48,145 nucleotides of DNA. Source: a virus. Lineage: Duplodnaviria > Heunggongvirae > Uroviricota > Caudoviricetes. Location of the stretch: IMG/VR virus record IMGVR_UViG_2526164669_000027, one strand, 5' to 3'. The stretch's first letter is position 1; the number at the start of each line of letters is the position of its first letter. Below the pieces are notes generated by a model. That model ran no database searches and was not told where the DNA came from. It worked only from the letters and a program-made list of their open reading frames with translations. Position numbers and translations under genes: made by a program. Positions 37,484-39,507 of the stretch are shown here, piece after piece.

Positions 37484-37930
37484 TCACACCTGCCAGCCCA
37501 GCGCCTGAAACAGGCCCATTTTCGGGTGATACCAGCGAGTACCTCGTGGTTCTGCTTCACTCATCATGCGATAAAAAGCAAACATGAAGGGTTCTACTGC
37601 AACAATCGCGCGACGAGACAATAATCCGTCCGGCGTCATAAATTCATGGGTGTCGGTAGGGATCTGATATGCGTTCACCAGATTGCGGCATTTCGCATCT
37701 GACATACCTGTTTTCGCCACCAGCTGACGGTATCCTGCATAACCATCGCATATGGTGCCTCTTTTGATTTGTTCGACAGTTTCGGCAACGTGGCTAACTT
37801 TTTCTTCCATCTTGTCGAGGCGTTTTTGCTGACGAACTGCTTCAAGAGCCATCGCGGCAACCATTTCGATTTCGCTCATTGGCTTACGGATCTGTTCTTC
37901 CAGTTCACGCCAACGATCTACCAGGCGGGC
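37484..37930 (-). pseudogene. Rha-family antirepressor, C-terminal fragment (gene split by IS insertion)
   Basis: Frame is open from the IS junction at 37930 downwards; continues the frame of the N-terminal fragment across the element. Confidence 0.7.
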
Positions 37931-37972
37931 TGAACCGCCCCGGGTTTCCTGGAGAGTGTTTTATCTGTGAAC

Positions 37973-38860
37973 TCAGGCTGCCAGATCATTATTTCCGATG
38001 GAAGCATAATAAGCTTTTTCTGCTTCTGCCGGAGGAATATGGCCCAGCCTTTCCAGCAATCGTCGATTGTTATACCAGTCCACCCACGTTAGTGTGGCCA
38101 GTTCCACTTCTGTCCGGTTTTTCCAGCTCTTACGGTGTATTACCTCCGCTTTGTAAAGACCATTGATGCTCTCAGCCATCGCGTTGTCATACGAGTCGCC
38201 AGTACTCCCTGTTGATGCCAGTAATCCGGCTTCCTTAAGCCGCTGCGTGTAGGCCAGCGATACATACTGAGAACCTTTATCACTGTGATGGATTGTGCCG
38301 GACGGCCGACGGGCCCACAACGCCTGCTCCAGTGCATCCAGCACGAATGTTGTTTCCATGGATGATGAGACCTGCCATCCCACGATGTATCCGGCGAACA
38401 CATCAATGATGAACGCCACATAAACGAAGCCCTGCCATGTGCTTACCCAGGTAAAATCAGCCACCCACAACTGGTCTGGACGTTCTGCCACGAACTGACG
38501 GTTTACGCGGTCGCATGCGGCAACGGCTTTCCGGCTGACGGTAGTGCGGACCTTTTTACCCCGGAGAACACCGGCAAGTCCCATAACTGCCATGAGACGT
38601 GCCACAGTGCATCTGGCCACTCTGATACCTTCCCGTAACAACTGACGCCAGACTTTACGCACACCGTATACCTGGTGATTTTCATCGTATACGCGCTGTA
38701 TCTCTTTCTTCAGCCAGTCATCGTGCTGCGCACGGGCACTGCGTTTATCCGGATGATGTCGCTGTTGCTGACAATGGTAATACGTTGACGGGGCAATATG
38801 CAGTTCGCTGCATACCGGTCCGACCCCGTACTGCTCACGCAGCTTATCCAGCAGTGGCAT
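37973..38860 (-). CDS. IS3-family transposase OrfB (DDE integrase domain)
   Basis: ..WVADFTWVSTWQGFVYVAFIIDVFAGYIVGW..HSDKGSQYVS..DNAMAESINGLYKAEV.. DDE motif. Confidence 0.9.
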   Translation of the reverse strand: MPLLDKLREQYGVGPVCSELHIAPSTYYHCQQQRHHPDKRSARAQHDDWLKKEIQRVYDENHQVYGVRKVWRQLLREGIRVARCTVARLMAVMGLAGVLRGKKVRTTVSRKAVAACDRVNRQFVAERPDQLWVADFTWVSTWQGFVYVAFIIDVFAGYIVGWQVSSSMETTFVLDALEQALWARRPSGTIHHSDKGSQYVSLAYTQRLKEAGLLASTGSTGDSYDNAMAESINGLYKAEVIHRKSWKNRTEVELATLTWVDWYNNRRLLERLGHIPPAEAEKAYYASIGNNDLAA

Positions 38861-39186
38861 TATTTTTTCCAGAGGCGGTCGAACTCCGCCTTCGCAAAAT
38901 AAGCGGAAGCCTGGCGAAGGATATCGTTACTGCGGCGCAGTTCACGATTTTCACGTTCCAGCTCTTTCAGACGCTGACGTTCAGCGGTGGTGAGTCCACC
39001 ATCACCACTCCCGGTATCCCGCTCATGCTGGCGAACCCAGACACGCAGAGTCTCCGGCGTACAGCCAATCTTTGGGGCAATGGAACAAATTGCCGCCCAC
39101 TGTGAGTCATATTCATCCTGACTTTCCAGAACCATACGAATCGCCCGCTGACGGACTTCGGGGGAAAAACGAGTATTTTTAGTCAT
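38860..39186 (-). CDS. IS3-family transposase OrfA (HTH and leucine zipper)
   Basis: [57 protein letters not shown]... matches IS629 OrfA as recalled. Confidence 0.9.
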
Positions 39187-39240
39187 CCTGTTTACCTCTT
39201 TCTCAGGGAGTTTAGTCTCCAGGATTTCCGGGGCGGTTCA

Positions 39241-39507
39241 GGCAGTGAATTCCGGGCAAAGTTGTGCGACGACAATGATGCTGTCGCGTTTGCCTTGTTC
39301 GCCTTCGAAAATATATGCGTTTGTGAATTTGTTTTGGCTAAATGATTGTTCGTTCTCAACTTTTTGCATTGCAGGAAGTTGAATCACCCCGCGTTTTGCC
39401 AGACGCTCTATTGATATTCTGACATTGCCGTGTTGACTTCCAACCAGCTCTGCGATTTCAACGCTGGTCATGGATACTTTGTCGTTAAAAATTGCGGTGT
39501 TCATCAT
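39241..39507 (-). pseudogene. Rha-family antirepressor, N-terminal fragment (Rha domain), terminated by the IS end
   Basis: ..MTSVEIAELVGSQHGNVRISIERLAKRGVIQLP.. typical Rha domain; stop codon is supplied by the IS terminal TGA. Confidence 0.75.

Follow-up and report, generated by a model that had tools for sequence, protein, structure and literature searches.

What interrupts the regulatory gene that follows the cro-like gene in the Caudoviricetes sequence IMGVR_UViG_2526164669_000027, and what does the interruption mean for the prophage that carries it? We analyzed this stretch of 48,145 nucleotides (hereafter the window, always at its full length). An earlier note on it had proposed that an IS629-like insertion sequence (IS) inactivated an Rha-family antirepressor gene and also placed terminators and promoters in the early-right operon, possibly leaving the prophage non-inducible or altered in its induction. 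We are highly confident of an account in which one copy of IS629 transposed into codon 89/90 of an Rha/Roi-family gene (hereafter rha) in the early-right operon of an apparently stx-negative, phiP27-like prophage at yecE of an E. coli chromosome, generated a 3-bp GGC duplication and probably had only a small effect on induction.

The inserted element is exactly 1310 bp long and lies on the minus strand (coordinates of all features are given in Table 1). Its ends can be read from the plus strand, where the left junction is ...CAGGCGGGC/TGAACCGCCCCGGG... at 37928-37931 and the right junction is ...CCGGGGCGGTTCA/GGCAGTG... at 39240-39241, the slash marking the boundary of the element. The terminal inverted repeats (TGAACCGCCCCGG) agree at all 13 terminal bases and at 22 of the first 25, being imperfect beyond position 13. 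Over 1310 of 1310 bp the element shares 99.5% nucleotide identity with the copy annotated as IS629 in phage BP-4795, and it shares 98.3% with IS copies in O157-type Stx2a phages; RefSeq names the matching IS end 'IS3-like element IS1203 family transposase'. Both orfA and orfB are intact, with the orfB product scoring 311.8 bits against the NCBIfam model transpos_IS3 (cutoff 160). The two genes overlap in TAATG, just after a run of six adenines (GAAAAAATAATG), with orfB in the -1 frame, which is the usual IS3-family layout for an OrfAB frameshift product. From established biology of the IS3 family, which transposes by a copy-out-paste-in mode, this A6 run is expected to serve as the programmed -1 frameshift site that yields the OrfAB transposase. 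The copy thus exhibits every feature of IS629 membership, namely full-length identity above 95%, a length of ~1310 bp with imperfect TG...CA repeats, an OrfA with a helix-turn-helix (HTH) domain and an OrfB with a DDE domain joined at an A-run, and a 3-4 bp duplication.

The element is flanked by GGC on both sides. Extended to 4 bp, the flanks are unequal (GGGC versus GGCA), so the target duplication is 3 bp. Deletion in silico of IS629 together with one GGC yielded a single open reading frame (ORF) of 236 amino acids (aa) at 39507..37484 on the minus strand, and the restored junction GAATTCACTGCCCGCCTGG is identical to that of the uninterrupted alleles of E. coli EC11 and C5. These two strains provide the best full-length matches to the restored gene among 5426 complete E. 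coli genomes (98.9% for EC11 and 98.7% for C5), each as one unbroken alignment, and both read GAATTCACTGCCCGCCTGGTAG across the site with a single GCC, which is GGC on the plus strand of the window. Their alleles appear in RefSeq as a 235-aa 'Rha family transcriptional regulator' that starts at the second Met. Since the restored junction equals natural empty sites, the duplication is demonstrated by real sites and is not a 1-in-64 coincidence. No second IS629 copy or fragment was found within the 48-kb window, which indicates that the element is not part of a composite structure. The earlier note had described a 1310-bp IS3-family element with terminal repeats and orfA/orfB, a clean 3-bp GGC duplication and flanking frames that join into a protein of roughly 236 aa; all of this holds, and neither of the outcomes that it named as refuting occurred: the frames do join and no composite element appeared.

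We then asked how far this junction has spread. Draft contig BGEU01000075.1 (GCA_005395025.1) is 99.95% identical to window positions 45506..39100, ends 141 bp inside IS629 and has the same junction, and a gene with a product of exactly 89 aa is called in that assembly. That an independently assembled draft shows this junction too means that the insertion did not arise as an artefact of assembly. Four further similar places were counted in public assemblies beyond those listed for the junction. The other place listed for the 89-aa product, L005, holds an allele free of the IS that merely runs into a contig edge, and it was dropped as evidence of insertion. Insertion at this site is rare among sequenced strains: none of the 5426 complete E. 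coli genomes covered at least 80% of a 400-bp junction probe, although the IS629 end by itself is present in 3631 of them. The junction was also without a match in the phage collection searched. We found no evidence that contradicts this structural account. Directly observed are the identity and boundaries of the element, the duplication, the empty site, the surroundings of the gene and the fact that at least one more sequenced strain has inherited the insertion.

The restored protein was compared with several family collections. Its match to Pfam Phage_pRha (PF09669) over residues 13-100 only just clears the gathering cutoff (30.0 bits, cutoff 29.9), and PHROG places it in a broad family, phrog_63 (3e-45), which is labelled 'anti-repressor Ant'. 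No NCBIfam model, including TIGR02681, matched at E<=0.01, and a PDB sequence search with the restored protein found no relative. The ANT/KilAC domain (PF03374) was detected neither in the whole protein at E<=0.01 nor in residues 90-236 at E<=10, and even at E<=10 no Pfam family was matched by the C-terminal 147 residues. Over residues 2-99 the protein shares 82.7% identity with the N-terminal part of entries that phi24B, BP-4795 and Stx2a phages carry under the name 'Roi' or 'DNA-binding protein', and the C-terminal two-thirds of the gene is 85.9% identical in nucleotide sequence to phiP27 L14. Judged from these comparisons, the interrupted gene most likely encodes a DNA-binding regulator of the Rha/Roi family with a mosaic makeup. 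The Rha-family assignment of the earlier note finds marginal support in the Pfam match and in the RefSeq name of the 98.9% allele. Its use of 'antirepressor' is an inherited annotation label only, and it is unsupported because the PHROG/annotation label is the sole evidence for it and ANT/KilAC was tested for and is absent.

We also compared rha with known regulators. Like phiP27 L14 ('anti-repressor Ant', NP_543066), rha lies after cro and before the replication genes, but its N-terminal ~65 codons come from a different module and the gene is interrupted. Homologues are also present in the prophages at yecE of E. coli that produce Shiga toxin (STEC), namely PPyecE and the Stx1a/Stx2a phages of O145:H28, those of O145:H28 being 80-84% identical in aa sequence over the whole protein. 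With Roi of lambdoid and Stx phages (phi24B and BP-4795; named after HK022 Roi) the protein shares a Rha-type DNA-binding N-terminus, whereas no relationship between the C-terminal halves is seen at this sensitivity and the Roi genes stand further along the phage records, at ~17-25 kb, presumably in the nin region. With P22 Ant-type antirepressors it shares only a label, by way of the broad phrog_63; unlike P22 Ant, it has no ANT/KilAC domain and is encoded inside a repressor-controlled lytic operon, not in a separate immI-like region.

We next examined the prophage around rha. The region from 31.2 to 47.1 kb of the window is collinear, in reverse orientation, with positions 1..13833 of the Stx2e phage phiP27 at 93.4% identity, and 63% of window 30000..48145 aligns to that part of phiP27. 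The phiP27 gene order (int, xis, ..., two HTH genes, a cro-size gene, L14 'Ant', L15, L16, an O-like gene, dnaC, dnaB, Q) is recovered here as int-xis-...-cI-cro-L14(rha)-...-O-dnaC-dnaB-Q. The host flank at 47120..48145 on the plus strand carries yecE (DUF72) and yecN, 99.9-100% identical to STEC chromosomes, and the attL core agrees with that of phiP27 (…CCCGTCATGTTAACTGCGTG). The yecE/yecN flank and the collinearity with phiP27 together identify a phiP27-like prophage at yecE, which is the integration locus of phiP27-like STEC prophages (PMC8112680). In the interval from Q to the lysis genes of the window we saw no pair of stx-like A/B ORFs, so the prophage appears to be stx-negative. A promoter-like site precedes the cro-like gene at 40923..40895 on the minus strand. 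The ORF directly upstream of rha has no PHROG or Pfam match, though it is conserved in EC11 and C5; its stop overlaps the rha start (ATGA, translational coupling), which places rha in the same operon. Much as the earlier note had it, the gene sits after the early-right promoter and before the replication genes; it shares its strand with the latter and with the cro-like gene. Full-length ORFs are present for terminase, portal, protease, capsid, tape measure, J, tail fibre and replication functions, and IS629 is the only lesion seen in the prophage at ORF-length resolution.

The insertion leaves two fragments of rha. Since the gene is split by the IS, the full-length 236-aa protein cannot be made, and from this split we infer loss of its function. 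The N-terminal fragment is closed after residue 89 by the terminal TGA of the element, with the result that no foreign residues are added; of the 88 residues in the Pfam Rha domain it keeps ~77 and loses approximately the final 11. The C-terminal remnant contains an internal ATG ORF of 131 aa at 37879..37484. The split gene could on this basis be partly working, with the 89-aa stub acting as a truncated or dominant-negative DNA-binding regulator and the 131-aa ORF perhaps translated separately. Most of the winged-helix Rha domain is indeed retained, the stub ends cleanly with nothing appended, and PHROGs contains short families that cover residues 2-65 only (phrog_15709) and 111-235 only (phrog_6610). 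We nevertheless consider such activity unlikely: the loss of ~11 domain residues may destabilize the Rha domain, the Shine-Dalgarno motif upstream of the internal ATG at 37879 (CGTAAGCCA ATG) is weak at best, the exact 131-aa product is not on record as a called gene in public assemblies, and the short PHROG families may be broken genes themselves.

A second alternative, the one favored by the earlier note, is that the insertion knocked out a true antirepressor and imposed a polarity block on early-right transcription, leaving a non-inducible or poorly inducible prophage. The location of the gene between the cro-like and replication genes, the fact that phiP27 L14-L19 forms one co-directional block, the name 'anti-repressor Ant' given to relatives by phrog_63 and several GenBank records, and the presence of 1.3 kb of foreign DNA within the operon all speak for it. 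The absence of an ANT/KilAC domain, an NCBIfam match or a PDB relative, together with the close N-terminal relatives named Roi or DNA-binding protein, argues against the antirepressor half. As to polarity, a consensus scan detected no terminator-like hairpin on the minus strand inside IS629 and no promoter-like (sigma-70-like) site inside it on either strand. Two plus-strand hairpins within the element are oriented against the early-right transcript, and the total numbers of sites are those expected from shuffled sequence. The proposal that the IS brings terminators and promoters into the operon therefore finds no support on the relevant strand. Furthermore, the transposase ORFs run in the direction of the operon, and read-through RNA would thus be largely translated, which would argue against strong Rho polarity. 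A toxin-antitoxin pair convergent to the early-right genes already separates rha from the replication genes here and in the IS-free EC11 and C5 prophages, and several minus-strand terminator-like sites lie in the same interval of the window, native ones standing at 37241 and 36509. Given this pair and these sites, expression of the replication genes may not depend simply on transcription through rha.

The repressor itself also bears on this alternative. The CI-like protein carries an S24 domain, in which a GDSM motif is found, as well as a linker that contains AG, and with such a self-cleavage domain SOS induction should not need an antirepressor. Moreover, as rha lies downstream of cro it would be expressed only after derepression and is an unlikely trigger of induction of this prophage. 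Two further Rha-domain genes lie downstream of the interrupted one. In O157 prophages mitomycin-C inducibility tracks the repressor peptidase motif, and many defective or IS-damaged O157 prophages are still inducible (PMC2669165). We regard the antirepressor and polarity explanation as distinctly improbable. The suggestion that the prophage may be non-inducible is likewise unsupported, because the element has no recognized terminator or promoter on the relevant strand, the repressor carries an S24 domain and two Rha-domain genes remain downstream. The effect of the insertion on prophage induction is thus probably small: the early-right transcript would read through IS629, which has no recognizable intrinsic terminator in that direction and along which the co-oriented ORFs would be translated, the self-cleaving S24 repressor would allow induction without the rha product, and the two downstream paralogs may provide redundancy.

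Several points limit the functional part of this account. The Rha/Roi protein may have an essential lytic role; HK022 Roi has such a role. Terminators that are weak or atypical may escape a scan as simple as ours, and Rho-dependent polarity is beyond the reach of sequence alone. In addition, a search for attR in the window with the yecE core returned only a 12-mer chance match, which puts the right end of the prophage beyond the window; with attR and the far end lying there, overall intactness is only partly established.

A bolder variant holds that the insertion is not neutral, and that the 89-aa stub or damped early-right transcription retunes or locks the lysis-lysogeny decision in one STEC sub-lineage. 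As IS629 is excisable with the IS-excision enhancer (PMC9943667), the insertion could act as a reversible inducibility switch. We believe this to be very improbable. The remaining idea, that the apparent insertion is an assembly artefact or the end of a larger IS-mediated rearrangement or composite, draws on IS629 being multi-copy in many E. coli and on repeats being a classic source of misassembly, but it is already effectively refuted by the identical 3-bp repeat on both flanks that rejoins to exact natural empty sites, the left junction repeated in the draft assembly, the lack of another IS629 copy in the window and a gene order on both flanks that is collinear with EC11, C5 and phiP27.

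Table 1. Coordinates of the interrupted rha gene, the IS629 element and neighboring prophage genes in the window.
Feature	Position	Strand	Basis or remark
Whole disrupted Rha/Roi-family regulatory gene, including the IS	37484..39507	-	Excision ORF 236 aa; Pfam Phage_pRha residues 13-100; phrog_63 3e-45
N-terminal fragment, codons 1-89	39241..39507	-	Stop is the first three IS bases, TGA, 39240..39238
C-terminal fragment, codons 90-236 plus stop (147 residues)	37484..37930	-	phrog_6610 residues 111-235; no Pfam family
Target-site duplication copy, GGC on plus strand	37928..37930	.	Direct repeat; single copy in empty site
Target-site duplication copy, GGC on plus strand	39241..39243	.	Direct repeat; single copy in empty site
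Whole IS629 (IS1203 group, IS3 family)	37931..39240	-	Transposase genes in same orientation as interrupted gene
Left terminal inverted repeat (orfA-proximal end)	39216..39240	-	13/13, 22/25 agreement
Right terminal inverted repeat	37931..37955	-	Repeat comparison
IS629 orfA, 108 aa	39186..38860	-	Pfam HTH_Tnp_1 2.9e-12; NCBIfam transpos_IS3 positions 1-86
IS629 orfB, 295 aa, DDE/rve catalytic domain	38860..37973	-	Pfam rve 1.5e-26, HTH_21 2.7e-18, rve_3
A6 run at orfA/orfB overlap	38863..38868	-	Read from sequence
Integrase	45797..47110	+	In phiP27 gene order
CI-like repressor, HTH_3 and Peptidase_S24	40895..41626	+	Peptidase_S24 1.3e-22, HTH_3 1.3e-14; phrog_4 transcriptional repressor
Cro-like first gene of early-right operon	40649..40858	-	Position as phiP27 L12 and EC11 'transcriptional regulator'
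103-105-aa ORF upstream of rha	39504..39821	-	312-bp hypothetical gene in EC11, C5
DUF4222 gene directly downstream of interrupted gene	37288..37464	-	Pfam DUF4222 2.1e-15; same neighbor in EC11, C5
Gp49/RelE-type toxin and HTH_3 antitoxin, type II, convergent to early-right genes	~36642..37269	+	Pfam Gp49 3e-25
Two tandem L16-like Ash+Rha genes	36461..35961 and 35979..35308	-	Domain and L16 comparison; start of first copy tentative
O-like initiator	33802..34794	-	PHROG match
DnaC-like loader	32913..33800	-	PHROG match
DnaB-like helicase	31516..32916	-	In phiP27 gene order
Q-like antiterminator	30897..31262	-	PHROG match

Several further observations concern the surroundings of the gene. The phiP27 neighbor L15 is replaced here by the DUF4222 gene and the toxin-antitoxin pair, the pair occupying the place of L15 and being the same one that is carried by EC11 and C5. 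The tandem Ash+Rha paralogs are 75% identical to each other in aa sequence and 88% and 69% identical to phiP27 L16; together with the interrupted gene they bring the number of Rha-domain genes in the prophage to three. A listed 508-aa GTG ORF at 35961..37487 is a mere run-on of the frame of the first Ash+Rha copy. Just downstream of the Q-like antiterminator, on the opposite strand, lies a 395-aa ORF with an N-terminal DUF4236 (29542..30729, plus strand), in a variable cargo slot that holds a GIY-YIG nuclease gene in phiP27 and an ompC-like porin in EC11. The interval from Q to lysis (27517..28853, minus strand) contains a DNA methyltransferase (N6_N4_Mtase, 348 aa) and tRNA-Gly(TCC), where Stx phages have tRNAs and stx. 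The EC11 prophage (L006, NZ_CP027255.1 4875000-4924900) has tail-fibre and integrase modules at both ends, adjoining potB and mlrA, a layout that suggests assembly errors and/or inter-prophage rearrangement. We dropped it as a reference for intactness, because annotated frameshifts abound in that assembly, which is also rearranged.

The insertion is an event of an ordinary, already known kind, and only its exact site is particular to this locus. In length, in the -1 overlap of orfA and orfB at an A-run, in its TGAACCGCCCCGG termini, in its 3-bp duplication and in its prophage location, the element resembles the IS629/IS1203 copies in prophages of enterohaemorrhagic E. coli and STEC (the BP-4795 Stx1 phage and ~20 copies in O157:H7 Sakai), and it differs from known copies solely in an insertion site whose junction is absent from the complete genomes and the phage collection. 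IS629 is the most abundant IS in O157 (PMC9943667), makes duplications of 3-4 bp, with 62% of its copies in four O157 genomes residing in prophages or prophage-like elements (PMC3271280), and is excised more readily through the action of the IS-excision enhancer protein (PMC9943667, PMC9397093). In STEC, disruption of prophage genes by IS elements is commonplace (PMC2669165, PMC8112680).

For this family of prophages the finding has little importance beyond annotation, where the locus is to be recorded as one Rha/Roi-family pseudogene interrupted by IS629, and neither as two small ORFs nor as an 'antirepressor'. The junction can serve as a lineage marker: none of 5426 complete E. coli genomes has it, and at least one draft assembly does. 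Taken together with the IS-free EC11 and C5 alleles, this natural knockout offers a convenient pair for studying the role of Rha/Roi proteins in the induction of phiP27-like phages, including those that are Stx-converting.

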